A DNA stretch of 64,000 nucleotides from contig CAVGUB010000111.1 in assembly GCA_963632375.1 (NCBI GenBank), positions 15,913 through 79,912 of the forward strand, in the 5' to 3' direction. This document shows, piece by piece, positions 1 to 64,000 of this stretch. The notes under the pieces were generated by a model. It was not told where the DNA came from, did not search any database, and worked only from the letters and a program-made list of their open reading frames with translations. Position 1 is the stretch's first letter. Every line of letters begins with the position of its first letter. Source of the stretch: Phocaeicola dorei. GTDB lineage: Bacteria > Bacillota_I > Bacilli_A > RFN20 > CAG-826. The position numbers and the translations under genes were made by a program.

Positions 1-1
1 A

Positions 2-838
2 TTATATGTAGTGATGAAAAAGTTTGATTGTACTTATGGTAAAGCATTGTTAATTGCTGCCAATGATTTTGGACTAGTTCCTAATTCTAAATTAGAGAAG
101 AATCCAATAACAATACAAACTACAACAATTCCTATAAATAAGCAATCTCGAATTCAAGTAGAAATACGTGAATTTCAAAAATATGAGTTAGATTGATGAA
201 ATTCTTATGGAATTACAGAAAATACCTTAAAGAAATTTAAGGTGTTTTCTTGTAAAAATATATGACTTAATGGAAATCTATTTCATATTGAATCGCCTAA
301 TCAAAGAATTTTTGGTTATTATGGTGGTACAAAAGATGGAATAGAATTATGAAGACTTTATTTTGTTGGAAGAAAAAAGTTTAAATTTCTTTCAAATTGA
401 AGTGCTTCTAAAATACAAGGCGCTAAAATGCTTCCTAAGACAGGTGGTGATATTTTAGTTATTACTAAGTCTTTAAAAGATGTAATGGTTTTATATGAAC
501 TAGGGATTCCTGCTATTGCTCCAAATAGTGAAAATCTATTTGTTACAGATTTGCAATATAAAAAACTTTCAGAAAAGTTTAAGGATATTATTGTATTGTA
601 TGATAATGATTTAGCAGGTATTTGTGGTATGCGTAAAATTAAACGACAATATCCCAAAGTAAAAGTAATGTATATTCCTAGAAGATATGAAGCAAAAGAT
701 ATTTCAGATTTTTATAAAAAATACGGTAAAGATAAAACTCTGAAATTAATTGATATGGCTAAACAATATTATTTATGTCCAAAAAAAGATCTGGCGCATA
801 CAATCGAAACCGAGGAATTAGAGCTGAGCAAAAAGTAA
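2..838 (+). CDS. DNA primase, TOPRIM domain (5' end probably outside the window); 5 in-frame TGA read as Trp
   Basis: The frame is open from the window edge. Track ORFs 11..196 and 428..838 are in one frame and are separated only by TGA at 194, 197, 263, 350 and 398. TOPRIM-like GGDILVITKSLKD and IVLYDNDLAG motifs are present. No zinc-finger part is visible. TAA stop at 836. Confidence 0.7.
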
Positions 839-1176
839 TAAATGAATTAAAAGAACTTGGATTTGATAAAGTAATGTCTTCTAGACAGGGTTCTAAAATA
901 ACAGATGATAATAAAGTCGATATTTTAGATACAGAACATCAATTACCATTTGGTATGAATATTCAAGTAAAACATCAAATAGCTTACCCACAATATTTTA
1001 AAATTAGAGAACAATCAACCGTTCCTAATGATACTTTTGTCATTATATGGGATAAACAAGAAACAAAAGAAAAAAATATTGTAACAGTAGGCAGATGTGC
1101 TATATTAGATTTAAGTTTATTTTATAAATTGATTGAGTTTTATGGAAAAAGCAAAAGTAACATTCAGGGATCTTAA
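775..1176 (+). CDS. PD-(D/E)xK nuclease, Holliday-junction-resolvase-like (motif-level call)
   Basis: ATG start and TAA stop; overlaps the primase 3' end by 64 nt. RGIRAEQKVINELKELGF ... VDILD ... IQVKH resembles the E / D / (E,Q)xK core of Hjc-type resolvases. Confidence 0.5.
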   Translation: MSKKRSGAYNRNRGIRAEQKVINELKELGFDKVMSSRQGSKITDDNKVDILDTEHQLPFGMNIQVKHQIAYPQYFKIREQSTVPNDTFVIIWDKQETKEKNIVTVGRCAILDLSLFYKLIEFYGKSKSNIQGS

Positions 1177-1339
1177 TACCGAGAACGAGATTTATGTTAA
1201 TCTCGAATTTGATTCTGAAAAGGAAACTCTTGATTATACTGTAGATTTGAACGATAAGTATAACAAGGATAGTAAATTGGATTTTATTGGAATTTTGGCT
1301 GATTATTTTTTGAAATCATTAGAAGATAAAAGCAATTAA
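1142..1339 (+). CDS. hypothetical protein (65 aa)
   Basis: Track ORF 1133..1339 with the first ATG at 1142. Its TAA stop overlaps the next ATG (TAATG). Confidence 0.5.
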   Translation: MEKAKVTFRDLNTENEIYVNLEFDSEKETLDYTVDLNDKYNKDSKLDFIGILADYFLKSLEDKSN

Positions 1340-2538
1340 TGGAATCAATTTATCCATTACTTTCTACAAGTTTTAGAGAAAAATTAAATGATCTACATAC
1401 AAAATATCCTGATAATAAAATACTTATCGATATTTTAAAAGCAGATGATATTATAGAAAGTAATAAAACATCATTTTCATCAGAAATTAAAGAACAATTA
1501 GGATTAATTATAACTGATTTTGGAAGAATGGTAACATTCCGAGATAGTTCTGAATTAATATCATTTCTTCCAAAAGGAAAGTTACCTATATATAATGAAA
1601 ATGGTAATTGGTCTACTAAAAATAGACAATGCAGTAAACCTGCAAAATTTTTTCAAAAATTGTTAGTACACAAATACACTTGTAAAGAGTTTGAAGATTT
1701 TTCTAACCTAATCAAATATGAAATTCTAAATACATTTGAATTTAGAATAGTTACAGGTGAAGATGTACGAAAATATTATAATGAGGACACTTACTATAAA
1801 AGTACGGGTACATTAGGTGCTAGTTGTATGCGATATAATGTTTGTGCAGATTATTTTAACATATATGTTGATAAAGCCCAAATGTTAGTAGCATTTAAAG
1901 GTGATAAAGTAATAGGAAGAGCATTACTTTGGACTTTACACGATGGAAGTATTTTTATGGATAGAATTTATTATTGTTTTGATTGGTTAGAATCAACATT
2001 CATACAATATGCAAAACATAATAAATGAATAATTAGAGTTAATAATGATATTCTTAACGATGGACATTATCTTTTAGTATTAACTAGTTCTGATGATTAT
2101 AAAGAAGCAATCACATTACGTGAAGAAATTCAATTAGATAAAAAATATAGAAAGTATCCTTACATGGATTCTTTTAGATATTTTAACACAGAACAAAACA
2201 TTATTAAAACTTATCCAGAAGATTATCAACGTAATTTAAGTTATTCATTAGGTGAACTTCCTGAACAAATAACATATACTTGTGCCCATTGTGGACAACA
2301 AGAAGTAATTGATTGCACCCAGGATTTAAACATGGTTTATAGCTGTTATAATGATTGTTATTATTGTGAAGAATGTGCTTGGTATTGTAATATATTAGAA
2401 GATTTCTTTGCAATAGACTCAATTTGTCCTGTATACGATGCCACTGGTTCTAGGTATTATTTACCACTAAATTGGCTAGAATCACAAGACAATGATATGG
2501 CTATAAAGAAAAATGATAAATGGGTTTTCATAGATTAA
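1339..2538 (+). CDS. hypothetical Cys-rich protein (399 aa), one in-frame TGA at 2026
   Basis: Track ORFs 1339..2028 and 2164..2538 share a frame. I read 2029..2163 in frame with no TAA/TAG. The C-terminal part has paired Cys motifs (CAHCGQQ ... CYYCEEC ... C) suggesting a zinc-binding module. Confidence 0.6.
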
Positions 2539-2542
2539 TAAA

Positions 2543-3304
2543 ATGTCAAATATTAGATATGATCTAATTCCTTCGCAAGGAATTACCGAAGTAAGTAAAA
2601 TATTTACTAAAAAGTTAGAGAAATACGGAATCAATGATTGGAAATATGGTATTTCTTGGACAAAAGTTTTATCTTCATTAAAGAAACATCTTACTGAATT
2701 TGAACAAGGTAATGATTTAGATGAAGATAACTTGCTACAAATTGCACATGTTGCGGAAGAAGCATTAATTCTTTGCGAGTATTATAAAATATACCCGCAA
2801 GGAGATGATCGTTTACTTGGTAACATTTCTGCTCCTAGAATATCATTGGATATTGACGATGTTTGTTTGGATTTTATTCCTGCTTTTGAGAAAAAGTTTC
2901 AAATAAAATTAAACAATTATTGGGACGGTTCATATTTAATGAATCAAATGTTGGATAAAGTAAAAGACGATAAAGATTTTTGGGTCAATTTACCCGTAAA
3001 GAATCTTCCTACATTTAATCCAACTTGTTATATCACTAGTAGAAGCATTTCAGTTGAATGGACTAAAGAATGTCTGGAGAAAAATGGTTTTCCTTGTGCT
3101 CCAGTATATTGTGTTCCATTTAATGAAAGCAAAGTTGATTTACTTAAAAGTAATAATATAAATATACACATTGATGATAAAGTTCAAAATTATCAAGAAG
3201 CGACTACTGCTGGTATATTTTGTTATTTAATGGATGCCCCACATAATCAGTGGTTTAAAGTTCCTCAACATCGTAGAATATATGATCTTAAATTAAACAT
3301 TTAA
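2543..3304 (+). CDS. fusion of a dATP/dGTP pyrophosphohydrolase-like N-domain (DUF5664-like) and a HAD-family 5'(3')-deoxyribonucleotidase
   Basis: The N-terminus (RYDLIP ... KYGINDWKYG ... LKKHL.EF.QGNDLDEDNLLQIAHVAEEALILCEYY) fits the DUF5664 pattern. The C-terminal half has a DxDxV nucleophile motif (LDIDDVCLDF) and a TSR ... IDD layout typical of NT5C-type nucleotidases. Confidence 0.65.
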   Translation: MSNIRYDLIPSQGITEVSKIFTKKLEKYGINDWKYGISWTKVLSSLKKHLTEFEQGNDLDEDNLLQIAHVAEEALILCEYYKIYPQGDDRLLGNISAPRISLDIDDVCLDFIPAFEKKFQIKLNNYWDGSYLMNQMLDKVKDDKDFWVNLPVKNLPTFNPTCYITSRSISVEWTKECLEKNGFPCAPVYCVPFNESKVDLLKSNNINIHIDDKVQNYQEATTAGIFCYLMDAPHNQWFKVPQHRRIYDLKLNI

Positions 3305-4347
3305 TGGAACAAGTTAATTTAAAAGATTTTAAAATAATTCCAATCCTTGATAGTTTAAAACAAGCTAAAATAAGTGATGAAGAATATTTTAGTAAAAAAT
3401 ATAGTAATTACGTATCTAATTCCCGATTAAAGAATATTGATCCTACAAGAGGTGGTTCTCCTGCACTATATAAAAATCCACCTAAGTTTAGTACAACTTC
3501 ATTAGCAATTGGAAGTTGTGTTCATGAAGTAGTACTCCAACCAGAATCATTCAAATTGCTTCCTAAACAAGGTAAACCGTCTGCAAAATTGGGAACTTGC
3601 ATTGATTATATTTTTAAATATAGAAAGGAAGGTAATTCAATAAAAGACTCTATTATAATGGCAAGTAACTCAGCATCTTATTATGCTGGAAAACTATCTG
3701 ATTCTAAAATCAAAATGATTATTAAAAAAGGTTTGCCTTATTATTTAAATCTTTTGAAATTGGAATTGAAAGATGGAGATATCCTATTGAGTGATACTGA
3801 TTGGGATGTGGCAACATCTTGTATCAATTCTTTAAATAAGAATCTTGTTATTATGAATAAATTGCATCCAACAACAGTGTTTGATGAAATAATCCCATCA
3901 TATAATGAAGATGCAATGTTCATTGATTTTTGTGTTATGTATAAGGATAGAGCGACTATTCTGAAATATAAAATGAAAATTGATAATTGGACAATAGACG
4001 TTGACAATAAGAAGATTACATTGAATGATATAAAAACAACCCGAGACAATCCAGACTATTTTATGGCTCCTGGAGCACACTTTGATCATTATAGATATGA
4101 TATACAAGGTGCGTTATACGGAGATATTCTCAAGTTGTATTGTATGCAAAAATACGGATACAACGAAGATGACTGGACTTTTGAAGTAAACTTTTTAGCA
4201 GTTAAAAACAATTATCCATTTAATAGTAAATGTTGTAATATGAATTCTTATCTATATAATCGAGGTAAAATATCTTACCAAAATTTATTAAAAAGAGTTG
4301 CATATTATGAAATATTTGGATACGATAAAGAAGTAGAATTTGTTTAA
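3304..4347 (+). CDS. putative PD-(D/E)xK exonuclease (RecE / exonuclease VIII-like); function uncertain
   Basis: 347-aa ORF coupled by TAATG to the previous gene. Its N-terminal SNSRLK ... AIGSCVHEVVLQPE pattern resembles phage recombination exonucleases. The CDS is confident; the function is weak. Confidence 0.5.
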   Translation: MEQVNLKDFKIIPILDSLKQAKISDEEYFSKKYSNYVSNSRLKNIDPTRGGSPALYKNPPKFSTTSLAIGSCVHEVVLQPESFKLLPKQGKPSAKLGTCIDYIFKYRKEGNSIKDSIIMASNSASYYAGKLSDSKIKMIIKKGLPYYLNLLKLELKDGDILLSDTDWDVATSCINSLNKNLVIMNKLHPTTVFDEIIPSYNEDAMFIDFCVMYKDRATILKYKMKIDNWTIDVDNKKITLNDIKTTRDNPDYFMAPGAHFDHYRYDIQGALYGDILKLYCMQKYGYNEDDWTFEVNFLAVKNNYPFNSKCCNMNSYLYNRGKISYQNLLKRVAYYEIFGYDKEVEFV

Positions 4348-4350
4348 AAT

Positions 4351-4827
4351 ATGATAGTATATACATTTAAAGCAACAACTGATGAAGAGGCTAAACAGAT
4401 AGCCTCTGAAAATTATAATACGACTGTTATTTCGACATTTGATTATAAACAATTTTCTAAAGTAACAACTGAAGAATTGGCATCAAAGTTAAATCTTACT
4501 CCGAATCCAGGAGAAGGTATTCTTACTATGAGTGAAAAAGCTCCAACTGTATCAAGAGTAAATCCTTATAATCTTGAAAATGTAGTTACAGAAGGCGCTT
4601 GTTCAAAGAAGCTTGTCTATGAGATTCTTGATTCGGAAGGTAAAATATATGACAGTGAGGAATCAAAGAAGGATGCACTAAAGAAAGGTAAAGAACTAAT
4701 CAAACAACTCAATAAAGACCTTATTTGTAAAAAAGTATATAGAGTTGATCCTGAGCACGAAGTTGCATTTAGACTAACATATACTCCTCATAAAGCGGAG
4801 AATACTTATACGTTATTTAGTTACTAA
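4351..4827 (+). CDS. hypothetical protein (158 aa)
   Basis: Uninterrupted ORF with ATG start and TAA stop, tightly packed between neighbouring genes. Confidence 0.7.
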   Translation: MIVYTFKATTDEEAKQIASENYNTTVISTFDYKQFSKVTTEELASKLNLTPNPGEGILTMSEKAPTVSRVNPYNLENVVTEGACSKKLVYEILDSEGKIYDSEESKKDALKKGKELIKQLNKDLICKKVYRVDPEHEVAFRLTYTPHKAENTYTLFSY

Positions 4828-4835
4828 TTTTATTA

Positions 4836-5138
4836 ATGTATCGTTTAGATAACGCTCTCACAAAATCTAATATCATATATATGATCATTATTGATACTCA
4901 TTTTTATATAGGGAGTACATCAAGACCTTTAAAAGAGAGATTAAGAGAGCATAAAAGATTATTATCAAAAGATAAACATTATAATAAAAAGATGCAGAAT
5001 TGGTTTAATTTAAATAAAGAATTCACAGTACAAGTAATGGAAGAAACTTCTAGATTTTGTTTGTGTGAAAGAGAACAATATTGAATCAATCTCCTACATC
5101 CAGATATTAACATTATTAACAAAGTAGCGGTATATTAG
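4836..5138 (+). CDS. free-standing GIY-YIG nuclease domain protein (100 aa), one in-frame TGA at 5082
   Basis: IYMIIIDTHFYIGSTSRPLKERLREH ... EREQY-TGA-INLLHPDINIINK. The GIY / YIG / R / H / E elements are present, and the TGA falls where GIY-YIG proteins carry E..(Y/F)W. It terminates at TAG 5136, directly before ATG 5140. Confidence 0.7.
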
Positions 5139-5139
5139 T

Positions 5140-5934
5140 ATGCAGATCACTTATGATGCTTTAATGTTAGGCAAACCAACCATCATTAAGGATAAACAAT
5201 TTCTTGCAACTAAGGATTATGTAGAACCTTTCTTTGAGTTTTTTAAATCTTTAACAGATAACTTTGAAATTCATGTAGAAATGCCAGAACAGGTTACAGG
5301 TTCAATTGATGCTAAAGATATTACATATAATAAAGTATGGTGTCAGGCTATTTTACCTCTAAATACTCAGTATTATGATCCAAAATTTGAGTATAATGAA
5401 GTATATGGTTTGATTTATTCTCTCGATGCTAAAATTCCAGAGATTAAATACTATCGAGCATATCAACACAAGACATTCAAAAATCTTTGTGTATTTGAAC
5501 CAACTTGGATTCAAACCCAAGAATTGAAACCTGAAGTAAAATATGATTATAATTTTAAAGAATTGTTGAGTAAACCAGAAACATTTTCTTCAAAATTAAA
5601 AAGTATTAAAAATACTTTCATAAAGCCAAATGAGTTAACCCCACTATTGGGTAAACTTATTGAAAAGTCATTACTTTATGATTATCAAAGTATTTCGAGT
5701 AAAGTTCAAATTGCATCTAAAGATATAGTTAAAGCATATCGTTTGGTAACATTGAAACCAACATCTAATTATTATGTTGATTCATCTACTGAAGGTTCTT
5801 TACATAACTTTTATTCTGCAGTTTGTTCACAAATAACTGAAGGTAAAGATATTATTTATAGATTTGAGAAAACCATTCTTGTAGGAATATTATTTGGAAT
5901 TATTAAATATGAGAGTAATAACAAAGCGGAATAA
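5140..5934 (+). CDS. hypothetical protein (264 aa)
   Basis: Uninterrupted ORF with ATG start and TAA stop; its 3' end overlaps the nrdD start. Confidence 0.7.
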   Translation: MQITYDALMLGKPTIIKDKQFLATKDYVEPFFEFFKSLTDNFEIHVEMPEQVTGSIDAKDITYNKVWCQAILPLNTQYYDPKFEYNEVYGLIYSLDAKIPEIKYYRAYQHKTFKNLCVFEPTWIQTQELKPEVKYDYNFKELLSKPETFSSKLKSIKNTFIKPNELTPLLGKLIEKSLLYDYQSISSKVQIASKDIVKAYRLVTLKPTSNYYVDSSTEGSLHNFYSAVCSQITEGKDIIYRFEKTILVGILFGIIKYESNNKAE

Positions 5935-8155
5935 AGAAGTAGAAGAATTTAATTTAGATAAAATTATACTTGCAATTAATAAAGCGTTTAGAAGTTCCGG
6001 ATTTGATACATGGGTTAATGAAGATAAAGTTGATGTCTTTGAAAGAATAAATGAACTTTTAATCGAATCTATAAATAAACTTTATGAAAGCAAAGACGTT
6101 GTTAATGTAGAAGACATTCAAGATTGCGTTGAAACAATTCTAATGCAATGTAAATGTTTTTCTGTTGCCAAGAGTTATATTCTTTATAGAGAGAAACATA
6201 ATGAAAGTCGATTTATCCAAGACAGATTGGATTATATGGACAAATATACTTCATCAGGAGATAATGCAGCAAGTTCTTCTGAAACAGATGCTAACGCAAA
6301 TGTTGCAATGAAAAATGTTGCAAATCTAGAAGGTGAAGTATACAAAGTACAAAATAGACTTGTTCAAAGAACAAGAATGAAGAAACGACTAAAAGAAATG
6401 TTTCCTGAAGTTGCCAGCGAATATGTCAAAGATTTGGAATCACATATTATTTATGCACACGATGAGGCAAGTTCACCAACAGTTAAAAACTACTGTATGG
6501 CAGCAACTCTATACCCACTTATGGTTGAGGGAACAGGAAATATTGATGGTGTAACACCAACTCCTCCAAACGATATTCAATCATTTAGTGGACAGGTTAC
6601 CAATTTAGTATTTCTTCTTTCATCTCAAGTACGTGGTGCTGTAGCTTTGGGTGATTATTTTGTAGCATTGAATTACTATGTAATTGCAGAATTTGGAAAA
6701 GATTGGTATAATCGTTTGAATGAAGTTACCACAACTAATACTTGTACAAAACAACGTACAATAAAAGATGCTATACGAAAAGGTATGAAACAATTTATCT
6801 ATGGAGTATCTCAACCAGCTGGTAATCGTTCATATAATTCACCGTTTAGTAATCTTAATTTCTTTGATAGTAATTATTTTGCAAGTATTTTCGATGAATT
6901 TCGTTATCCAGATGGCACTAAACCAGAATGGAAAGCGATTGATTCTTTACAAAGAATTTTTCTTGAACTTCATAGAGAATTGCGTTTAATTAAACCTTTG
7001 ACTTTTCCGGTAACAACGATGTGTTTACTAACTGATGGTAATGATATTGTTGACAAAGAATATAAAGAATTGTGTGCAGAAGAACTTTCTAAAGGAAGTA
7101 GTTTCTTTGTTTATTTAAGTGATTCTGCATCAAGTATCTCAAGTTGTTGTAGAGTTCGTAATGAAATTTCAGATAACACTTTTAGTTCTACAACAGGTTT
7201 GACCGGAATTATGACCGGATCTTCTAACGTTATCTCATTGAATTTCAATAGAATAGTACAGAATTGGTATAATTATATTTCTTGTGATGTTGAAGCTTGT
7301 GATAAGATAGGTAAAGCATCTCCAGAGTTTATTGGAAGTATTTTGACAACTGATAAAGAACTACAACAATCTTTAAAAGATTATTTGATTTCAATTCTAG
7401 AAAGAGTTTATAAATATCAAATTGCTTTTAAATCACTACTGTATGATATGGAAGACAAAGGTATGTTTTCTAGTTCAAATGCAGGATATATTTATACCAA
7501 AAAGCTCTTTAGTACAATTGGATTTATTGGATACTGTGAAGCTGCAGAATTTCTTGGCTATAATGTCAATTATAATCAATCTTATATAAAATTCGTACAA
7601 TTGTTATTGAGTACAATTGAGGAACAAAATCGAATTCATTCAATACATGATAAAAAACGTCCATGTATATTCAACAGTGAAGGTATCCCTGGAGAACAAT
7701 TAGCTGTTAAATTTTATAATTGGGATAAAAACGATGGTTATAAAGTTCCAGAAGATCAAAACTTATATAGCAGTTATTTCTTTAAACAATGGGATGATAA
7801 AATTTCTGTTCTAGATAAATTACGTTTACACGGAAAAGAAATTGCATCATATTGTTCAGGTGGTCAAGCCGCACATATTCATTTGGATTCACATCCATCT
7901 AAAGAACAATATTTACATTTACTTGAATTTAATGCTAAAAACGGAGTTAGTTATGTTGGATTCAATATTCCTATTAGTGAATGTAAAGATTGTGGACATG
8001 TAGTAAATGCTCCAATTAAAGAATGTCCTATTTGTGGAAGCAATCATATCGATTATTGGATAAGGATTATTGGGTTCCTTCGACCTTTAAGTTCTTATAG
8101 TAACGAGCGATATAAAGAAGCAAATAAAAGAATTTTTTCACATATTAAAGATTAA
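5909..8155 (+). CDS. nrdD: anaerobic (class III) ribonucleoside-triphosphate reductase
   Basis: ATG at 5909 begins an ATP-cone (MRVITKRNKEVEEFNLDKI). There is a C-terminal Zn-ribbon (CKDCGH ... CPICGS) followed by the glycyl-radical motif RIIGFLRP. The protein is long (748 aa) and contains no TGA. Confidence 0.9.
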   Translation: MRVITKRNKEVEEFNLDKIILAINKAFRSSGFDTWVNEDKVDVFERINELLIESINKLYESKDVVNVEDIQDCVETILMQCKCFSVAKSYILYREKHNESRFIQDRLDYMDKYTSSGDNAASSSETDANANVAMKNVANLEGEVYKVQNRLVQRTRMKKRLKEMFPEVASEYVKDLESHIIYAHDEASSPTVKNYCMAATLYPLMVEGTGNIDGVTPTPPNDIQSFSGQVTNLVFLLSSQVRGAVALGDYFVALNYYVIAEFGKDWYNRLNEVTTTNTCTKQRTIKDAIRKGMKQFIYGVSQPAGNRSYNSPFSNLNFFDSNYFASIFDEFRYPDGTKPEWKAIDSLQRIFLELHRELRLIKPLTFPVTTMCLLTDGNDIVDKEYKELCAEELSKGSSFFVYLSDSASSISSCCRVRNEISDNTFSSTTGLTGIMTGSSNVISLNFNRIVQNWYNYISCDVEACDKIGKASPEFIGSILTTDKELQQSLKDYLISILERVYKYQIAFKSLLYDMEDKGMFSSSNAGYIYTKKLFSTIGFIGYCEAAEFLGYNVNYNQSYIKFVQLLLSTIEEQNRIHSIHDKKRPCIFNSEGIPGEQLAVKFYNWDKNDGYKVPEDQNLYSSYFFKQWDDKISVLDKLRLHGKEIASYCSGGQAAHIHLDSHPSKEQYLHLLEFNAKNGVSYVGFNIPISECKDCGHVVNAPIKECPICGSNHIDYWIRIIGFLRPLSSYSNERYKEANKRIFSHIKD

Positions 8156-8161
8156 AATATT

Positions 8162-9098: not shown

Positions 9099-9102
9099 AA
9101 TT

Positions 9103-10369: not shown

Positions 10370-10370
10370 T

Positions 10371-10802: not shown

Positions 10803-10814
10803 AAATTAAATATT

Positions 10815-54800: not shown

Positions 54801-56294
54801 AGCTTCAGTTGCTGATAAAAATCCTTCTGTAAAAAACATTCCGGTTTTACCATCATCATCAAGCTCGTATAACATAGGAATGTAACTAACTCCATCGATT
54901 CCAAGTGCTAAACCTTGCCCTAATGTATTAGCAATACGTTTTTGTCTTACTAAGAAATATCCTTTTACACCTAATTCTTTTAATTCTGAAATAACTAAAT
55001 CATCTAATTCAAAATTAAAATACAAAGGTTTTACGGTATTATTTGAATAATTAATTACTTGGTACTTAGGCAATTTAAATACACCAAATGTATTGTTTAG
55101 ATACTTTTCATTTGTAATAAAAGTATCTCTTTCATATTCTTCAGTTGATTCTAAATTAATATCGTTGTCTTGATTTATATCTGTAAATTCACAACCTTTT
55201 AAGTTAAAAACAGGTGTTAATGAATTATCATTTAAAATATAAACTATACCCAGTCTATAAATTTCATCAGGTCAATATCCTAGTCTATAATAATTATTCC
55301 ATGGCGAATAGTATTCTGTACGAGATTGATCGTCCTCAACATTATAACTATAATCAGAAGAATTAATTCAGCCAATACTTTCAGAAGATTGTTTTAATGT
55401 AACTTTTACTTTATATGATCATTTTTGTAATTCAGCAACATTTATATTATTCTTCTGAACATTACCAAAAAAGAGCATATTTTGTACTTGTGCTTCTGTT
55501 TTAGCCGCAGTAATTAAATTATATTGGATATTTAATTCATTTACAGTAACCTCTACGGTATCTTCATAACCCGTGATATTTACTAATTCTGTTTCAGAAT
55601 TGAACTTAATAGGGTCTTTCAACTGCATTGCTTCTATTTGGCTAACCCCATTTGTATCACTAAATTCCCTAGTATAATACAAATATATTCTTGAATAACT
55701 TTTATCCAAATTTGATATTCTTAACGAAATCGTTTTATCAGTCACCTCATTTTGCATGGTACCGACTATAGAACCTATATTAGAAACCGTGCCTTTGTAA
55801 ATAATAATTTGTCCTGATTCGGTTAAGAAATTTGTTTTATTATCATCTTCATCAGATAAACGTAAATAAAATGTATATATACCACCTTTTAATTGTCCAG
55901 AAGTTTCAACTCCATTTAAATCAATCACCGGGAAACAATCAGTACTCTTAATTAGCCTAGTTGTTTCATCAATATTTTCTTCTTTATAAAGATTTGTTTG
56001 ATTTATTTGATTCCTCTTTATTATCTTGAATCGATTATCTTCAATTTTTGAAAAACGTGTATTTATAATTCTAGGTGGATTTAAATCATCTGTCATAAGA
56101 AGATTAACTGTACCATCATAAGATGGTTGGCATTCAATCGAAACAGGATGATTCAAATCACCTAATTTGAAGTTTTTTATGGTAAACCCCTTTATAGATC
56201 CATCACTTTCTAAAATGTTTTGTAATGCACTATAAGTATGTGAAAAAGATCCTTCGTTGGGGTATTTATATATGTTAAATTTAATCGTACCCAT
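51801..56294 (-). CDS. large tail/structural protein (1497 aa), family not recognised; about 14 in-frame TGA
   Basis: Track ORFs 52215.., 53076.., 53748.., 54315.., 54774.. and 55419.. share a frame, joined only by TGA. ATG is at 56294 (in-frame TAA at 56307) and TAA stop at 51801. Confidence 0.75.
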
Positions 56295-59200
56295 TATTTT
56301 TTCAATTTAAAATGATTTCAATCATCATTTGTTTCTCCTATGTAAACACCCATAAGTTTTTGATCCTCATCTTTATATCCAACAACAGCGCCATATAATA
56401 ACCTATCACTTACTCACAAACTACTATCCTTATTTCAATTAAGTATATCCAAAATATATTTTTGTGTTGGTTCTACAATTCCACTTTGAGATTTATCGTA
56501 ATAATATGAACTGCCTGCATATAATGTTGTTTGATAAGAATCCGAAGTACATTGTTTATATTCAGTGTTAATTTTTGAATTTAAATTTTCAATTTCAGCT
56601 TTTATATTAACGAGTGATTCTTCTAACGAAGCCTTATTTGATAAACTAACATTGATTTCGGTATTGATAGAATCAAGAGTTATTGAATTTGGAAGAGTAG
56701 CTAATGTACTAACATGACTTAAATTATACGTATTTAGATCTGATAAATTTTCATCATTGGTTAATGCAAAAATATATTTATTACGTGACGTTTTATCTAT
56801 TAAATCAAAGCCTTCATAAGAGTATTTAACATTACCCATATTAATTTCTCCATCTAAAGATATATTATTCACCATTTGTTCTAATTTTAATGTAGGTGAA
56901 TTCAACGTAATAAATGAGCCATATACAACATGCTCATCATATGTCACTTTAATGAAATTCGATTTAAGTTTTTCAAAAAATGTATTTCAATTTGATTCAG
57001 CTTTATCGTCTTTTGTATCATCCCATTTTTGATTATCTGCCGAATAAAACACATAAAAAGGTGTATTGTTAGGACTTCTTAAAGTAATGCAATATAAGTG
57101 AATATTGTATTGTAGATTAGGCTGATATGCATGGGTTGCTTTTTGTGTCTCTGATTCCGCATCTCCACTAAAATTTCCAGGATAATAAAATGACATAGCT
57201 CAACAATTACTCTTTTCCGCAGCAATATTGAATGTAAAGATATTACATTTAATAATGTCATACGTTTGAAGATAATGTAGGAGAATATTATTTATATTAC
57301 TTGAAGAATCTGTATGATCATTATAAACACTAGAGGTTCCTTTTGGAACTTTTATAGATCATGTAGTATCAGCTCGGGTATCTCCTTGAAGAGTTAAATT
57401 AAAAGTAATTCCTTTATAAGCGTCTGATTTAAATGCGATATCACTTACGTAAGTACTGATTGTTAAAGGTGCTGTAGAAATATCATTTACCGTATAATCG
57501 CACAATTCCAATGTTCGAAGAATATTTGGCGTATATGTAATTTCCTTTGAATACTCATTTTCAATAGTTCTAGAATATATAGAACTTCCATCAGTTTTTT
57601 GTAAAGACCCTGTATATTTATCAAAATATAATTTTTGAGTAGAATCAAACGAATCAGTCAAAACAGCACCTTCCAATATAGAATCTCAAAGTGGACCATT
57701 CAACATTTTTACATCAGAATCACAATGTAAATTTAAAGTATAAGGAATACTTCAACGTAAATTAACTGATTTCCCTAAATCTCCAACTACATCAGAATCA
57801 ACAAATGTTTTATATTTTGTTATTGATCCACCATTTTTCCAAGCTAAATAAGCAGCGTTTTCTTCAAACTTCACATCGTCCTCACTCGCTACTTCATAGG
57901 ATTCTAGTTTTATTGTTTTGTTTTTTACATAGTCTTTATACTTATTAAACCAAGTATCAAACGGGATTTCATCATATTTAGCATCTTCAAAATCATTCAT
58001 TATTTCTGATGCTATAATTACTTTATATATTGTTTTCTTTATATAGTTTTCAAAATTCGCAATATCATCATCTGGAATTTTTTCACAGATATCAAAACGA
58101 ATACGATAGATGTTTTCAGGAAACAAATAATTTCATTCATCAATATAATGTCCAAACATTTCTACATGAACATAAGGAACCATTGAAATAGTTTCATTTG
58201 TATCAAATCCGTCTTTATTTCACGCCGCACAATAAAGTCTGTATGCTTTAGCTTCTGTTACAGTTCCGTCTTCAGCAGTAAATTCCATTCCAGTATAAAC
58301 TGGCTCAAATTGGGACGTTTTCTTATTGTATGCTTCAATAGTGTAATATAACTCAAGATTATCTTTTTGAGAAATTGAGTTAACTCCAAATGTATCAAAA
58401 TAAAGTGTTAGCGTATTAGAATTAGAATCAACTGTATATTTTCATGTTTGTGTTCCAATATTAATGTTATCGATACTGTTCATATTTTTCAAAACAAAAC
58501 TATATGATTGCCGCATATTATCATATACCATTTCTTTTAATATAGGAACAGCTTCAATCCTTATTTTTGAATCTGGCGTACATTCATCAAAATTAAAAGA
58601 TGTTGTAGCAATATATGATTTTGCTTTATTATACAAAGTGTATTCCCCATTTTCATTTAATGAAATAGTTTCTTCCTTTTTAAGTACATCATCGAGATAG
58701 ACTTCGTATTTTATTTGTAAATCTTCCCTAATTTTTGAAAAATCAGTACTTGTAAAAAGATTATCATAAGTTTGAATTGCAAATTTTATAATACCTGAAA
58801 CAGAACCATATGTGTGTCCTTCTTTATCGGTTTTTGTAAAAACATCTGTATTCAAAACAGGTGTAGTGATAAAGAAAGAATTTAATTCAGCGATTCTGTT
58901 TCTAATAATAAATCAACCAGGAATTTGTCAGGTTACTTTATGAGCTTCTTTACTTATTTTGACTTTATCAGAAATATCAAAAAGATTTTTATCAGAATCA
59001 AGAATATAATATTTAAGTTCTTGATATTCTGAATCTTCAACATCAAGTTCTAAAGAATACTCATCATTTGGATTTATAACATAATCATTAGTAAAAGGAT
59101 AAAAACTAATGTTTTTAATTTGTTTAATTAAGTCTGTATAATTACCTTTTAACTCAATTGTTTCAATATCTTGGGTATCTAACGGTTGTTCTACACGTAC

Positions 59201-59497
59201 ATCAGTTTTCGTAGAAGGATACGAACCTATTTCTGTCTCTTCCGTTAAAGGGTTGTATGAAACTATATATAAAATTCCTGCATATTCTTTTAAACCAATG
59301 GGAATAAATCCTTCTTTCAATTTACAGTTTGACAATGGATAATTACCCATATCGTTTTGTAAACTAAATTCATTTCCATTATATGTTATAATTGTTCCAT
59401 TTAAACAATCTGTAAGTACGTTGTTAGGTACATTAATCGGATTTAAATCCTTGATCATACCTTCTGATCATTGATTTTGTGCGGATTTTCTACCCAT
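56294..59497 (-). CDS. large tail/structural protein (1067 aa), family not recognised; about 14 in-frame TGA
   Basis: Track ORFs 56435.., 56987.., 57359.., 57752.., 58442.. and 58928.. share a frame, joined only by TGA. ATG is at 59497 (in-frame TAA at 59498). TAA at 56294 overlaps the next ATG. Confidence 0.75.
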
Positions 59498-60044
59498 TTA
59501 AATATGTTATTTTATTGTTATCGTCTCTTGTTGCAATTAAAGTGATATTACGTGTAGTATAATTTCTTTTACAGCAAAACATACCTTGGTCAGGCTCTCC
59601 AGTAAGTTCAAAAAGATATTTTAGTTTTTTACTATCACAAAATGGTTCTTTTTCAGCTTTATAAAGTTTTAACTTATCAAAGGTTATTTTGTTTTTAATT
59701 CTTCCAGATTTTTTAGGAATATATTTATCATATTCTTCTTGAGTAAATGCAAAATAGTATTTTCCATTTCAAATTTTGGTTTGATAAACATATAGAAGTC
59801 TCTGTTTTAGTTTATACTTTATGGATTTATATCTTTCCCAAAGATCCTTCTTTTTAAAGAGTTTCCCAATATAAGCACTAAATTTTCATTTCTTAGATGC
59901 CAGATACACATCAGCACCCTTATTTGAAAACAAATACATTGTCCTAAACCCTCGGGTGACAATATCTTTATAATCTTCAAAACAAAGATCTGGATAATAC
60001 TCTTTTACTTGCTCATAATAATCATCTATATATTTTAATTGCAT
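59490..60044 (-). CDS. hypothetical protein (184 aa); 2 in-frame TGA, TAG stop
   Basis: Not in the track. It runs from ATG 60044 (overlapping the upstream TAA) through two TGA to TAG 59490; the codon count is consistent with the coordinates. Confidence 0.6.
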
Positions 60045-60490
60045 TAGTAATATTGTTTTCCTTGGTTTACTTTATCTGTTATCATCTTCTTTAATTCAGA
60101 CGACACATAAATGAGTTTTTCTTTCATTTCACCTGCTTTACTTTTAAACTGAAACGTTAACCTATAAGCAGTAAAATTACTTGACAAGAGATCAACTTCA
60201 AGCATTCCACTCTTTTGTCGAATTTCTTGCAATCGATCACCTACAATAGGTTGCATATATATAACTCCATGTCGCTGATTGAATAAAGGTAATACAAATG
60301 TAATATTATTTTGAATGATATCCAAAAGTATGAGAAGGAATGTTAGATTGAAAACCTGAACACATAAATGCTTTTTGTTCTTTGCGCCATATTTGTCAGT
60401 CAATTTTCTAGGAAATTTTAGAGCCCTGGAATTAAATGTACTAAACAAATCACTACAAGATATTGCATGAAGAAATCTTTCAAGTCACAT
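60044..60490 (-). CDS. hypothetical protein (148 aa); 1 in-frame TGA
   Basis: Track ORF 60044..60448 extended upstream through a TGA to ATG 60490, which overlaps the upstream TAA. Confidence 0.55.
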
Positions 60491-61191
60491 TATAGAATAG
60501 GTTTTAATGATTTACCATAATTCTTTCTATCTCAACGATATTTAACATCCAAGATTGCGTCCATATCATTCTGGGATAAATGTTCTGGAATTCTTGCTGC
60601 ATTACAATTTTTAAGTCATTCAGCTTCAACTGATTGAACAAGTGCAAAAGCATATTTTGTTGTTGAACCTTTACGTAACATATCTTTCAACATTTCTCGT
60701 CATGCAACAAAAGACGCAATCGCTTTCATTTCTTTATCATTTATTAACGGAAGCCCTTCCTCATCATCACATAATATACCATGATATACAACCATTACAT
60801 TTTTAAAATCACGATCAAAATAAAGAACTCCGTCACCCTCTCTATATTTCACTAACTTACCTTTTGTATTAAATGGATTGTTTAACGAAGGTCAAGCATC
60901 AATATAATGTTCTGTTCAAACAGAATTCATATTTACATAATCATCTTTATTACTTGTAATAGTAGCATCTGTAACAGGAATGTGTACAGATTCTATAACA
61001 GATACGTTACACGGTAGTTCTAAAGCACCATCTTTTGTATCTCCTACATACCGATACAAACGAGTGTGTTTATTGTTAATTTTATCCCACGCCACAAGAG
61101 CAACATCTTCAAATGTATTTGGATCTGGCTCAATACCATATAGGGTTTGAACCATAGAATATGCTGATTTAAAATTGTATAATTTTGCCAT
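60490..61191 (-). CDS. virion-module protein (233 aa); 5 in-frame TGA
   Basis: Track ORF 60916..61191 continued in frame through TGA codons to TAA 60490. Confidence 0.7.
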
Positions 61192-61905: not shown

Positions 61906-61928
61906 TTATTGATATATCTTAGTTAATG

Positions 61929-62738
61929 TTATGCTTGTTCAGGAGCAGGTGCAGATTTAAAGGTGCCAAATGCAGCTTCAAACTCTTCTTTAACACTTTC
62001 CGGTACATAGAACACATGAGTAGTAAGAGATTCTACAACCTGATTTACACCTGAAAGGCCACCGGGAACAGCTTTTGCAACTCTATATTGGAATGAGTAC
62101 ATATCATAAATCTGACCAGCAACAGGAGCTTCGTCTGCAAAGAGTGCAGAATATCTCATGTTTGGATATGAAGGGAAACGAAGGTTCTCACGAATCCACT
62201 CACCGGTTGCGAACGGAACGATACTAGATTTGATGTCAACAGCTCCAAGAGAAGAAACTTCCTCAGCACCAGCTTCAAGCGGTTTTACCTTCTCGTAATT
62301 AACTTCTGCAAAATCAAGATAAGGATCTGCAACTGTAAGAACAATGTTTTCACCCTCTACTTCAACTTTGAAAAGCTCATTACCAGGATTCAAAGCAAGC
62401 TCAATTGCTTTCTTTAAACCTGCTGCATCCTCAGCAGCTGACTCTACAATAACAGGCTTACCAAATTCCATATAATCAGGAAGTGCATACTCTGCAAACT
62501 CTCTTCTTGCATGAACAAAAATAGAAAGTCTTGCAACATATCCATCCTCTGGTTTAACGAATGCAAAAGTAGCAGTACCCGCTACACCTTCAACACCTTT
62601 TGCTACATACTTACTCTCACTATCAATTTTGTCAAGAACATATTTACCTGCTCTTTTTACAACGACTGCCGTATCAGCATCAACTTTCTTAATTAATCCC
62701 TTTTTGTTAAGGATTGTTTCGTGTATATAATTAAACAT
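61929..62738 (-). CDS. abundant virion structural protein candidate (269 aa), family not recognised; no TGA
   Basis: Uninterrupted ORF that is visibly more GC-rich, with different codon choice from its neighbours, and is immediately followed by a strong terminator. This fits a very highly expressed structural gene. Confidence 0.8.
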   Translation of the reverse strand: MFNYIHETILNKKGLIKKVDADTAVVVKRAGKYVLDKIDSESKYVAKGVEGVAGTATFAFVKPEDGYVARLSIFVHARREFAEYALPDYMEFGKPVIVESAAEDAAGLKKAIELALNPGNELFKVEVEGENIVLTVADPYLDFAEVNYEKVKPLEAGAEEVSSLGAVDIKSSIVPFATGEWIRENLRFPSYPNMRYSALFADEAPVAGQIYDMYSFQYRVAKAVPGGLSGVNQVVESLTTHVFYVPESVKEEFEAAFGTFKSAPAPEQA

Positions 62739-62752
62739 AATTTATTTTCAAT

Positions 62753-63649
62753 TTAGGATTTTTGAATACTTTGTTGAGCATATGCTTGTTGCATTGTATT
62801 GGAAATTGTGTTGTTTATAGGGATTACAGTTTGTAATCTTGGATCACTAGCATTTTCCATAACCAATCTAACAAGTATATTTATAATCTCAAAACAAACA
62901 TAATCTGGAAACTCTACAGTTTGTGAATTATCAACTGTATCGTCTATTTGGTCTTGTGTAAGATGAATATGCATTGGAGATTTTATATAGTCCACATAAA
63001 TATGTTTTGGCTCATATAAAGAAGTATCTCCCAATCTTAATTCCATTAAAACATCTTGAGAATTAGAACATCTGGAACCTTTTTCTTCGGTAGTATAAAT
63101 AAATGGATTTTTCAAATTTTCCAATGTATTTTCAATACTACTTTCAAGATCCTCGCCTTTATTTCCTCATTCTGTTTTGTTGTTTGTATAATTCAAATAA
63201 TAATAAGGTCTTTTATAAGACGGCTTCATGTATGCATTACCTATTATTGATGAAAACATGTCTGAAGTAAGCCTTCTTGCTGTGTAATATACTTGTGAAC
63301 CTTCTTTAATGCACCCTTTATTATTTGAAGCTTCATATTCAACTATACAATTAAGTAAATGCATATAATCCGAAGGTAATTTCACGTATCAAGAATTACT
63401 TAACATTCCTTCTGTTCCTAGTTCTGGTCTGTATTTATCAAATTTTTCAGGAACTAAAACGGTAGTTGCTTTTAAAACACGAATGTCATCAGTAGATTGT
63501 TGATCGATCTCCGATTTACTATACACAAGATTTATATATTGTTGAATCGCTTTATTAAGTAAATAATTAAAGTCCTCTATAAGTAAACTAGGGGCTTCCA
63601 ACTTATTTAATTCTATTAAAGTAAATTCATAAATGTCCCTAGAAGTCAT
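62753..63649 (-). CDS. virion-module protein (298 aa); 2 in-frame TGA
   Basis: Track ORFs 62753..63124, 63167..63385 and 63389..63649 share a frame; the junctions are TGA at 63167 and 63389. Confidence 0.75.
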
Positions 63650-63664
63650 TAATTGTTATTACTT

Positions 63665-64000
63665 TTATTTTGTGCCTTTTTTAGATGTAGAAGATGAAGC
63701 TTTTGCAATTTTTTCCTCCAATACATCTACCGGCGCAAATTCTGGATAAGTTTCAAATTTAATCTGGTCGAGAATAGCTTTACTTGTAGGCATTTTAAAG
63801 AACATGATTGTGGCATCATCCGTAGCACCAAGTACGGTATCAGAATACATAAACATACCATTTGTTCTTCTAATTACACCTCTTGCCTTTGCATCGATCA
63901 AAAGCAATTTAAGAGCCATATCTCCACTTGTATAAAGATCAATTATTTGATCTGGATTCTTTTGAGCAATCTGATAAAGATAATCCTCTACATCTGATGC
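63665..64000 (-). CDS. virion-module protein, 5' end probably beyond the window
   Basis: Track ORF 63665..63919 has its frame still open to position 64000 (ASDVEDYLYQIAQKNPDQIIDLYTSGD precedes the ATG at 63919). The alternative start is 63919. Confidence 0.6.
   Translation of the reverse strand, partial: ASDVEDYLYQIAQKNPDQIIDLYTSGDMALKLLLIDAKARGVIRRTNGMFMYSDTVLGATDDATIMFFKMPTSKAILDQIKFETYPEFAPVDVLEEKIAKASSSTSKKGTK

Follow-up and report, generated by a model that had tools for sequence, protein, structure and literature searches.

The 64,000-nt window (the whole stretch of DNA that was analysed) is part of a ~143-kb crAss-like gut phage in which TGA is reassigned from stop to tryptophan (Trp), and the reassigned codon is used in blocks. 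Over most of the genome, namely the core replisome, tail, giant genes and homing endonucleases, TGA is shown to have drifted until it makes up ~72% of Trp codons, which approaches the 80-90% taken by the A-ending codon in most other A/G-ending pairs. We consider it likely that the pattern reflects block-wise TGA-to-Trp recoding with one block spared by selection, sustained by a suppressor tRNA in a standard-code host.

TGA as a tryptophan codon and its distribution

The Pfam families crAss Ring-1, Ring-2, muzzle and capsid place the phage in the crAss-like lineage, and its PolB is ~50% identical to Suoliviridae; the genome was absent from both GenBank phage records and IMG/VR. Switching the window to code 4 raised coding coverage from 0.787 to 0.965 and merged 99 ORFs into 41. 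TGA is read as Trp, judging from the thioredoxin WCGPC tryptophan and from alignment with W/Y/F in standard-code relatives: TGA positions face W/Y/F in PolB and primase of cr4_1 and align with W/Y/F in the five large late genes, and in the MT835470 alignment 21 of 74 TGA sites face W and 23 more Y/F, a profile like that of TGG. Code 25 (TGA = Gly) was ruled out, as TGA faces Trp or aromatic residues and not Gly.

An earlier note on this DNA had described TGA use as strongly uneven, which was borne out far beyond chance. The plus strand of the window holds 13 TGA and 69 TGG versus 134 and 49 on the minus strand (odds ratio 14.5, Fisher p=1e-18), and the TGA share of Trp codons is 10% in the plus-strand block 775-19389 versus 72% on the minus strand. 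By module, the TGA/TGG counts are 30/11 in module A (replisome block), 8/69 in module B (the spared block) and 137/52 in module C; A differs from B (p=5.5e-12) but not from C (p=1), the module A counts including sequence recovered upstream of the window (L003: full primase, PolB, SNF2 and DnaB). Within the minus-strand module, TGA use does not vary significantly between genes (permutation P=0.42); module A is heterogeneous (P=0.002). The unevenness is specific to TGA: 13 other NNA/NNG synonymous pairs were 66-97% A-ending in both strand sets, without a comparable shift. Of the earlier interpretation, a sense TGA used unevenly by block with no suppressor in the window proved correct; its gene categories needed correcting, and its early suppression does not follow.

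Recoded and spared genes

Features of the window and their TGA use
Feature	Position	Strand	Observation
Toprim primase, 3' part	2..838	+	Pfam Toprim_2; 5 TGA / 0 TGG in window
Module B, 31 genes, nucleotide metabolism and accessory	775..19389	+	8 TGA / 69 TGG (10%)
GIY-YIG endonuclease	4836..5138	+	Pfam GIY-YIG residues 13-89; TGA codon 83 inside domain
nrdD, anaerobic ribonucleotide reductase, 748 aa	5909..8155	+	Pfam NRDD and ATP-cone; 0 TGA / 7 TGG; ATG at 5909
nrdG-like activase	9501..9998	+	Weak Pfam Fer4_12 match; one TGA, codon 159/165
ATP-dependent DNA ligase	11462..12649	+	Pfam DNA_ligase_A_M residues 109-308; 2 TGA
Thioredoxin	13482..13736	+	Pfam Thioredoxin; single TGA, codon 12 = W of WCGPC active site
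thyX	13878-14894	+	Pfam; TGA-free
VWA-like/metallopeptidase DUF2201 gene	15068-16228	+	Pfam; TGA-free
AAA ATPase gene	16235-17467	+	Pfam; TGA-free
dNMP kinase	18480..19172	+	Pfam DNMK residues 9-223; TGA codon 40 inside domain, downstream of P-loop
Five large late genes (1558, 3366, 2981, 622, 1480 aa)	19444..49502	-	89 TGA / 35 TGG together
Q/A/E-rich protein, 92 aa	49579..49857	-	No Trp codon, TGA or TGG
Tail and structural genes	50103..61191	-	43 TGA / 12 TGG
Muzzle	51801-56294	-	Pfam crAss_MUZ on identical Logan gene product
Ring-1	60490-61191	-	Pfam CrAss_Ring_1 on identical Logan gene product
Ring-2	61194-61862	-	Pfam CrAss_Ring_2; 0 TGA / 1 TGG
g47	61929-62738	-	0 TGA / 1 TGG
g48	62753-63649	-	2 TGA / 0 TGG
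g49x, 3' part	63665-64000	-	L001 extension

Module B is a contiguous 18.6 kb; for 24 of its 31 genes, codes 11 and 4 give the same reading, and its TGA depletion is extreme (P of at most 8 of 77 at 72% = 1e-29). Its genes end in TAA (29) or TAG (3), with TGA as a possible stop in at most two of them, versus 52/215 TGA stops in standard-code relatives (at most 2/32 here, p=0.02). Conserved Trp sites stayed TGG-TGG against relatives in 24/30, 18/23 and 12/20 cases, while K/E/Q third positions differed at 28-41% of conserved sites in those comparisons. Because TGA stops are avoided and TGG is kept despite saturated synonymous divergence, purifying selection is shown to keep module B at 10% TGA and so readable in either code.

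Module B is nevertheless not strictly standard-code: seven of its 31 genes carry TGA, and at least four of these TGAs, in ligase, thioredoxin, dNMP kinase and GIY-YIG, are essential as sense codons. Of the two ligase sites, codon 129 (inside the Pfam match) must be sense, because it lies 5 codons ahead of the KIDG adenylation motif; the other, codon 386, is near the C-terminus. The nrdG TGA is almost equivalent as sense or stop, because a TAG follows six codons later. Our recount reproduced all the earlier per-gene TGA counts, with gene names backed by Pfam: none in nrdD, ThyX, dUTPase, VWA-like and AAA genes, two in ligase, and one each in thioredoxin, dNMP kinase, GIY-YIG and NrdG. The region 13878..17467 (thyX, a small ORF, VWA-like and AAA) holds 0 TGA and 18 TGG.

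The primase is the last gene of a TGA-rich replisome block that extends upstream of the window. Five of its TGAs lie in the window, as reported earlier, but the full gene (352 aa, L003) has 6 TGA and 0 TGG. Upstream, PolB (8/1), the SNF2 helicase (6/1) and DnaB (3/0) are similarly recoded, so that the core replisome (PolB, helicases, DnaB and primase) reaches 73% TGA, matching the late genes; AAA_24 (0/3) and a8 (0/2) are TGA-free within the block, and mostly so in relatives too. The earlier statement that TGA is rare in most replication genes was therefore an artefact of where the window starts. Because PolB, SNF2, DnaB and primase are recoded like late genes, the label "replication genes" does not suit the spared set, which serves nucleotide metabolism and accessory functions.

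The large late genes have orthologues in MT835470 and MT835492. The giant genes were rightly called dense in TGA, although the range of one per 100-150 codons became 71-149 on recounting. TGA had also been reported absent from three highly expressed minus-strand genes (g47, Ring-2 and the Q/A/E-rich gene); the zero counts stand, but the three hold only two Trp codons (P=0.076 at 72% TGA), and the Q/A/E-rich gene, without any Trp codon, is uninformative on TGA choice. Ring-2 and g47 are members of a capsid-proximal cluster that in relatives is depleted in the recoded codon: 4/14 versus 51/13 in flanking genes of a close relative (L032, p=1.3e-5), and 7/37 versus 434/248 in a TAG-recoded relative (p=5e-10). 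The intron-split major capsid gene lies just past the window end, its last exon found by tblastn. Among longer genes, g47 has the highest NNC bias.

Suppressor candidates and the pattern in related phages

As the earlier note had stated, the window contains no suppressor tRNA or release-factor gene (ARAGORN, Rfam and Pfam); the tRNA was not found in ~74 kb of this phage with ARAGORN and Rfam, the window has no Pfam release-factor match, and it yielded no Rfam element of any kind. Four family-level TGA-recoded relatives (L036-L039), on the other hand, each encode a 73-75-nt tRNA(UCA) in a syntenic position, 6-9 kb upstream of the replisome, and three of the four score 54-59 bits on the Rfam tRNA model and do not match tRNA-Sec. 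ARAGORN labels these UCA tRNAs "SeC" by default. In two of the four, genes before the tRNA are nearly TGA-free (before versus after: 1/31 versus 28/28 in L036, 3/49 versus 20/29 in L039); neither L037 nor L038 shows a significant difference between the two sides. Going by these relatives, at 42-61% protein identity, the phage would encode its own suppressor, a tRNA(UCA) whose discriminator base is G73, on the transcriptional arm that also carries the replisome. UGA decoding must be efficient, because 90% decoding per TGA would by our computation leave only 7% full-length product for a 25-TGA protein.

Five TGA-recoded relatives show the A/B contrast as well (pooled A 54/43 versus B 31/102, p=1e-6), and synteny of module B extends to at least four other TGA-recoded phages, its closest relatives by NrdD (75-78% versus 64% for standard-code). 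Syntenic sister genomes are either standard-code or recode TAG, in the late arm only. In L038 the replisome is TGA-poor (PolA 0/15, SNF2 1/9), and polymerase type and intron/HEG content differ among relatives; the variation in replisome recoding may be partly due to exchange of polymerase cassettes.

Alternative explanations

Could expression level, rather than timing, shape the pattern? If competition between the suppressor and release factor 2 makes UGA costly, the codon would be purged in proportion to protein output, and the abundant proteins would be those of module B, AAA_24, a8 and the capsid-proximal genes. The capsid-proximal depletion in L032 and in the independently TAG-recoded relative, the TGA-free AAA_24 and a8 in a heterogeneous module A, and the NNC bias of g47 are consistent with this. 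However, an NNC versus NNT proxy over five two-fold amino acids was equal across modules (0.14, 0.16 and 0.15) and showed no correlation with TGA fraction (rho=0.10, p=0.55); 31 neighbouring genes with varied functions, many of them small unknown ORFs, are unlikely all to be abundant, and the avoidance of TGA stops is left unexplained. We thus regard this as unlikely to be the cause of the block, the expression effect probably being a real second layer within modules. Still less probable is a recent import of module B from a standard-code phage or host, too young to have gained TGA and under no selection. Horizontal exchange of nucleotide-metabolism genes is common, and relatives differ in polymerase type and in intron or HEG content, but module B does not stand out from the rest of the genome in GC content or in its other A/G-ending pairs, its synteny and NrdD identity tie it to TGA-recoded relatives, its TGG codons persist at saturated divergence, and import predicts ~24% TGA stops.

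A host that itself uses code 4 (or 25), which would make TGA use ordinary codon bias without phage machinery, was the refuting possibility raised in the earlier note. Low GC is typical of code-4 organisms. The 29% GC found here and the lack of a suppressor in the sequence searched fit such a host, but only 21 of 49 window genes contain TGA, versus ~90% reported for phages of TGA-recoded hosts by Borges et al. Furthermore, module B is selected against TGA, syntenic relatives are standard-code or TAG-recoded, TGA-recoded ones carry their own tRNA(UCA), known crAss-like hosts are standard-code Bacteroidota (PMC7886860, PMC8375218), and the code-25 variant conflicts with the Trp/aromatic residues that TGA faces; we find a code-4 host very improbable. 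Context-dependent read-through or selenocysteine instead of general reassignment, which the default "SeC" label would fit, is barely credible: the 147 in-frame TGAs of the window are distributed evenly within genes (KS p=0.42) and have no distinctive base after them, TGA aligns with Trp, the relatives' tRNAs fit the general tRNA model in length and score and not tRNA-Sec, and the window lacks any Rfam element.

Relation to known code blocks and proposed timing of translation

In Mycoplasmatota and their phages (code 4), UGA is Trp through tRNA(UCA), a cell-level reassignment across all genes. This phage would share the tRNA(UCA) route, judging from its relatives, and is likewise AT-rich with TGA dominant where unconstrained, but here selection acts against TGA over a large block, and related phages bring a suppressor of their own; together, these two observations imply a standard-code host.

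TGA-recoded crAss-like phages with code blocks have been described (PMC7886860, Yutin et al. 2021; Mgcod, 10.1101/2022.06.29.495998; zeta-group phage Lera, PMC12386605). They share with this phage crAss-type virion genes, TGA as Trp, recoded codons mainly in structural genes and near-absent from a dual-code-readable block, intron- or HEG-split conserved genes, and standard-code or TAG-recoded sister lineages; the suppressor tRNA is often hard to find (3/17 code-11/4 genomes in Mgcod). Here, in contrast, the boundary falls within the plus-strand arm, directly behind the primase gene, and not at the strand switch, and the core replisome is recoded like late genes, whereas Mgcod puts replication genes in the unrecoded early set. 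MT835492.1, an unannotated 121.6-kb human-gut phage, shares the module A/B/C gene order and the two-arm layout, has only part of its genome recoded, and is depleted in the recoded codon at the capsid gene and its neighbours, but it recodes TAG (441 TAG versus 285 CAA/CAG in the late arm), leaves replisome (0/46) and nucleotide-metabolism genes (1/100) unrecoded, and has its boundary at the strand switch. Borges 2021 (10.1101/2021.08.26.457843) uses the same per-gene metric (recoded stop versus synonymous sense codon) and temporal model, with standard-code-compatible genes first, then suppressor tRNA, then recoded genes; it reports variable alternative-code use in replication machinery and a detectable suppressor in only ~35% of TGA-recoded genomes, and stresses lysis-gene enrichment and integrase avoidance. 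A spared block made up of nucleotide metabolism, TGA-stop avoidance within it and capsid-proximal depletion, as found here, are not mentioned in the text available from that paper. Block-wise recoding as such has been published before for crAss-like phages (Yutin 2021, Borges 2021, Mgcod), and this phage clearly adds a new case.

Among crAss-like phages only PhicrAss001 has RNA-seq; there the middle class (10-30 min) takes in all replication and nucleotide-metabolism genes, and the true early genes form a small operon at the end of the genome (PMC8375218). The earlier argument from the primase, that infection needs suppression from its very start, therefore does not follow; among the options offered (host, packaged or very early phage factor, or primase and ligase as middle genes), the third fits best. 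Because both gene sets share one class there, a simple early/middle/late scheme fails to predict the A/B split. Under block-wise recoding with a spared block, the host would be a standard-code member of the Bacteroidota, and module B would be translated while UGA decoding is still ambiguous, before or during the build-up of tRNA(UCA), and again later. A second, weaker layer of selection would reduce the recoded codon in capsid-proximal genes, and replisome and virion proteins could be produced only after suppression becomes efficient.

A crAss-like phage that reads TGA as tryptophan

The window has a GC content of 28-33% and two gene arms, one on the plus strand up to 19389 and the other on the minus strand from 19444. 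Under code 11, long ORFs cover 79% (0.787) of the window in 99 pieces. Under code 4, these 99 ORFs merge into 41, which cover 96.5% (0.965) and include genes of 3366, 2981, 1558, 1497, and 1480 aa; conserved genes that are split by in-frame TGA under code 11 are thereby made whole. Treating TAG or TAA as a sense codon gave no gain in coverage. A code-11 annotation of the contig would break about 40% of the genes, the polymerase and all large structural genes among them. We curated 49 window genes under code 4 before counting their Trp codons.

Among the window's gene products are members of the crAss-specific Pfam families CrAss_Ring_1, CrAss_Ring_2, crAss_MUZ, and crAss_MUZ_C, and Crass_capsid was found on an exon of the major capsid protein gene in a relative whose g47 protein (g47 being a window gene close to the capsid gene) is 85% identical. 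Directly 5' of the window lies the gene of a family-B DNA polymerase (PolB) that shares 48-50% identity with the polymerases of classified Crassvirales (cr4_1 of the Suoliviridae, cr10_1, and similar genomes), and the replication module is syntenic with theirs. Since a 143,369-bp contig carries the window's own g47 protein, the window makes up about 45% of a crAss-like phage genome. Neither megablast of 25 kb against GenBank phages nor a PHROGs search with ten structural proteins returned a match, and the window's contig was not recovered by exact pattern from IMG/VR, JGI metagenomes, or GTDB genomes. The giant ORFs (1480-3366 aa), which have orthologues in relatives, occupy the position expected for the crAss virion-packaged RNA polymerase; a Pfam search of their TGA-free fragments found no polymerase domain.

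Some other features of the window were also recorded. A DUF192 (COG1430) gene, with orthologues conserved in both GenBank relatives, sits within the tail and structural gene region. Next to the small gene g38, a 246-nt stretch without a convincing gene forms the largest gap in the late arm, and Rfam found nothing in it. In the product of g05, the match to a dATP/dGTP diphosphohydrolase N-terminal domain is confined to residues 4-90; its C-terminal 160 residues include a DIDDV motif that recalls HAD-type phosphatases.

Three lines of evidence establish that TGA encodes Trp here and is neither a Gly codon nor a read-through site. The sole TGA of the thioredoxin gene is the W of the WCGPC active site; Pfam domain matches run across TGA in the ligase, GIY-YIG, and dNMP kinase genes; and TGA stands opposite W, Y, or F in standard-code relatives. 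The last was seen in the PolB and primase of cr4_1 as well as in the late genes of MT835470, a standard-code syntenic relative, where W was the partner at 21 of 74 positions and Y or F at 23 more (background W, 1%). TGG codons showed the same partner profile (W at 10 of 32), and Gly was absent from the eight most frequent partners of TGA. The 147 TGAs are uniformly placed along genes with no special downstream base. This distribution, the lack of any Rfam element in the window, and the UCA tRNAs of relatives, which are 73-75 nt long and of the general tRNA type, argue against selenocysteine recoding. Gating of translation by early TGAs was rejected because of the uniform overall placement, although the first TGA comes somewhat earlier than random across the late genes (P=0.018, exploratory); the four late genes with a TGA in their first 10 codons are listed in the table. 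UGA decoding must be efficient, because 90% per codon would leave only 7% of a 25-TGA protein at full length.

Positions of the features discussed (counts are TGA/TGG codons)
Feature	Sequence	Position	Strand	Observation
g05	window	2543-3304	+
nrdD	window	5909-8155		intact
DUF2201 metallopeptidase/VWA-like gene and AAA ATPase gene	window	15068-17467	+	both TGA-free
g35	window	34237-43182	-	late gene, TGA at codon 6
g38	window	49579-49857	-	92 aa, Q/A/E-rich, no Trp codon
g38 and adjoining gap	window	49579-50102
DUF192 gene	window	50103-50693	-
g40	window	50693-51799	-	late gene, TGA at codons 2 and 4
g42	window	56294-59497	-	late gene, TGA at codon 10
g44	window	60044-60490	-	late gene, TGA at codon 2
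g47	window	61929-62738	-
capsid gene insertions	L001	232-1508		just past window end
last capsid exon	L001	1347-1508		53-aa ORF
capsid gene insertions	L032	2170-8135
family-B DNA polymerase	L003			8/1
SNF2-type helicase	L003			6/1
198-aa protein	L003			4/2
DnaB	L003			3/0
full primase	L003			6/0
interrupted nrdD	L011	10001-15539
interrupted nrdD	L012	10001-13454
tRNA(UCA)	L036	6649-6722
tRNA(UCA)	L037	6371-6445
tRNA(UCA)	L038	7912-7985
tRNA(UCA)	L039	9407-9481
family-A polymerase	L038	14627-16654		0/15
family-B polymerase	L039	17089-18972		7/1
five tRNAs (Asn, Asp, Met, Tyr, Ala)	MT835492.1	11783-13885

Three modules with different Trp codon use

All per-gene counts of the earlier note were reproduced, and its gene names were confirmed by Pfam. 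The uneven use of TGA that it described is real: the plus-strand genes of the window have 13 TGA and 69 TGG codons and the minus-strand genes 134 and 49 (odds ratio 14.5, p=1e-18), with one TGA per 71-149 codons in the giant genes. In thirteen other NNA/NNG synonymous pairs, the A-ending share was 66-97% in the two gene sets alike and did not shift to a similar extent; the unevenness is thus specific to the TGA/TGG pair.

An exact-protein look-up yielded the Logan contig L003, which matches 5 kb of the window without a difference and reaches 7.5 kb further upstream. Because its replisome genes are as rich in TGA as the minus strand, three modules can be distinguished. Module A, the replisome block, has 30 TGA to 11 TGG codons (73% TGA); module B (775-19389), comprising nucleotide-metabolism and accessory genes, has 8 to 69 (10%), with 24 of 31 genes lacking TGA altogether; and module C, the minus strand, has 137 to 52 (72%). 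No difference was seen between A and C (p=1), whereas B differs from both (p=5.5e-12 and p=1.5e-21, respectively). The earlier note had described TGA as rare in most replication genes; the TGA-poor set exists, but it is the nucleotide-metabolism and accessory block, and the replisome itself is TGA-rich. The code boundary therefore lies inside the plus-strand arm, at about 775-838 right after the primase gene, and not at the strand switch. A contiguous block readable under both codes thus adjoins a block that needs the alternative code.

We then considered why module B is poor in TGA. At 72% TGA, the probability of at most 8 TGAs among 77 Trp codons is 1e-29. The GC content and other codon choices of module B match the rest of the genome, and the NNC/NNT bias is much the same across modules and does not track TGA use, which argues against expression level as the cause. 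Module B is syntenic in four TGA-recoded relatives' loci (L009, L011, L012, and L024) with the same A/B contrast (pooled, 54/43 in module A vs 31/102 in module B, p=1e-6). Synonymous change between the window and these relatives has reached saturation, with 28-41% of conserved Lys, Glu, and Gln codons differing at the third position, yet TGG is kept on both sides at 24 of 30, 18 of 23, and 12 of 20 conserved Trp sites of module B. TGA is avoided as a stop as well: it is possible in at most 2 of 32 module B genes, both followed within a few codons by TAA or TAG, whereas in standard-code relatives 23-24% of genes end in it (p=0.02). Avoidance of the codon in both roles, sense and stop, is expected of a block translated under both decoding states and not of one recently imported from a standard-code genome. 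On these codon comparisons, module B is not young but is kept readable under both codes by selection.

Within module B, the adjacent DUF2201 metallopeptidase/VWA-like and AAA ATPase genes have no detectable orthologues in the complete genomes of MT835470 and MT835492. The nrdD genes of L011 and L012 carry one or two insertions with TGA-rich ORFs.

Codes and suppressor tRNAs in related phages

Only two GenBank records, MT835470 (117 kb) and MT835492 (122 kb), have structural genes in common with the window. The former uses the standard code. In the latter, TAG is recoded in the late arm only, where 441 TAG codons stand against 285 CAA/CAG; the replisome orthologues have 0 TAG to 46 Gln codons and the module B orthologues 1 to 100, and the code boundary is the strand switch, its classical position. 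Together with the TGA-recoded window, closely syntenic phages hence use three different codes; differing codes among crAss-like groups have been reported before by Yutin et al. (PMC7886860). Entry of the recoded codon into the replisome is particular to the TGA lineage and varies from relative to relative. Among relatives of this lineage, the family-A polymerase of L038 has no TGA, the family-B polymerase of L039 is TGA-rich, and a family-B polymerase split by a LAGLIDADG endonuclease occurs in L036 and L037 (16-20 kb); the TGA load may follow the polymerase cassette. MT835492.1 carries five tRNAs, and no amber suppressor was detectable in it, though 61% of its late-arm Gln positions are TAG.

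The statement of the earlier note that no suppressor tRNA or release-factor gene lies in the window was borne out. ARAGORN found no tRNA in the window or in L001 and L003, the Logan contigs extending it; Rfam, even at permissive thresholds, found nothing relevant in the window; and Pfam detected no release factor or aminoacyl-tRNA synthetase there. ARAGORN also found no tRNA near NrdD/PolB of 20 relatives or at four capsid-gene loci, while a control tRNA-Arg in L004 was detected. An IMG/VR pattern search from the relatives' suppressor tRNA returned nothing, as did related-locus searches with the AAA protein, SNF2, and a1 (a module A gene). Several of the peptide patterns contained W and were probably blind to TGA-encoded Trp: back-translating W only as TGG would miss TGA-encoded relatives, which may explain several of these empty results.

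Four larger contigs (L036-L039, 154-171 kb) were reached through an AAA ATPase gene far upstream of the polymerase in L024. All are TGA-recoded and have the a1-polymerase-SNF2-a4-DnaB order in common with the window's phage, at 42-61% protein identity. In each of the four, a tRNA(UCA) of 73-75 nt occupies the same syntenic position 6-9 kb upstream of a1, flanked by an IMPDH-like gene on one side and an AAA/Cpn60 gene pair on the other; a second tRNA (Glu or Gln) lies 3.4-5.4 kb further upstream. Against the general Rfam tRNA model, three of the tRNA(UCA) copies score 54-59 bits; the L039 tRNA has an unusual T-arm and scores below the Rfam gathering score; and none was reported as tRNA-Sec. The discriminator base is G in every one of them (G73), the identity element of bacterial tRNA-Trp. 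TGA use rises past the tRNA in L036 (1/31 before, 28/28 after, p=3e-6) and L039 (3/49 before, 20/29 after, p=3e-5); the contrast was not significant in L037 and L038. By analogy with these relatives, we infer that the window's phage probably carries a tRNA(UCA) as well.

The earlier note further held that TGA is absent from the most highly expressed genes. In the window this comes down to only two TGG codons, in g46 (Ring-2) and g47 (P=0.076), module C is statistically homogeneous in TGA use (P=0.42), and the counts are too small to show a depletion near the capsid gene; relatives do show depletion, not absence. In L032, whose g47 protein is 85% identical to that of the window, the cluster of a 356-aa gene, capsid exons, g49x, g48, g47, and Ring-2 has 4 TGA to 14 TGG codons, compared with 51 to 13 in flanking late genes (p=1.3e-5), and in MT835492 the capsid gene, g49x, and g47 have 7 TAG to 37 Gln codons, compared with 434 to 248 elsewhere in the late arm (p=5e-10). 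The recoded codon is thus depleted in capsid-proximal genes of TGA-recoded relatives (L032, and L002 by small counts only) and of the TAG-recoded relative. The major capsid gene consists of several exons, and its insertions carry GIY-YIG/NUMOD homing-endonuclease ORFs; these are mostly TGA-rich (3/0 and 2/0, with one 0/1), and the capsid exons mostly use TGG. The g47 protein has 549 homologues, many on 115-180-kb contigs, and, of the genes encoding more than 200 aa, its own shows the strongest NNC codon bias. PDB sequence searches gave no match for g47, g48, or g49x. The AlphaFold model of g47 is confident (pLDDT 84.5), with a phage tail sheath domain as the best fold match; at a TM of only 0.26, a tail-sheath-like identity is not convincing.

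Timing of the code switch and its significance

The crAss-like lineage, the standard-code and TAG-recoded sister genomes, and the selection against TGA in module B all point, indirectly, to a standard-code host. In such a host, probably a member of the Bacteroidota, UGA would terminate or be ambiguous after infection. Module B and the genes preceding the tRNA would be translatable during that time, and the replisome, virion genes, and homing endonucleases once the suppressor had accumulated; in the relatives, the dedicated tRNA(UCA) lies upstream in the same arm. The same model has been published (PMC7886860, 10.1101/2021.08.26.457843, and 10.1101/2022.06.29.495998), with dual-readable genes first and recoded genes after the suppressor.

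The earlier note took primase to be early. This does not agree with the sole experimental timing data set for a crAss-like phage (PhicrAss001), in which replication and nucleotide-metabolism genes both belong to the middle class (PMC8375218). The shared class removes the premise of an early primase, and by itself does not explain the difference between modules A and B. It is conceivable, though improbable, that the code switch gates the start of DNA replication in this lineage rather than late-gene expression or lysis; pre-replicative genes (nucleotide supply, nucleases, and the VWA/AAA pair) would then be dual-readable, while polymerase, helicases, and primase would need UGA decoding. More remote still is a genome without any suppressor tRNA, in which a protein from the TGA-free block would alter UGA decoding; the DUF2201 metallopeptidase/VWA and AAA pair, with host release factor 2 or tRNA-Trp as its target, would be one candidate. 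Overall, the earlier interpretation stands as to TGA being an unevenly used sense codon, and fails in its label of replication genes and its early-primase premise.

The observation is real and highly significant, and the phenomenon has already been described for gut phages. The architecture of a dual-readable block beside an alternative-code block is that of Mgcod/Yutin 2021 (PMC7886860). In contrast, the pattern reported there, with the code switch at the strand switch and replication genes unrecoded, does not apply here but is seen in MT835492. The accepted model is unchanged by these results, which add a well-quantified example of gut phages with a private genetic code in part of the genome and three modest refinements: the spared block can be nucleotide metabolism while the replisome is recoded, it is poor in TGA as a sense codon and as a stop alike, as expected under ambiguous decoding, and the recoded codon is depleted in the capsid-proximal genes of relatives.
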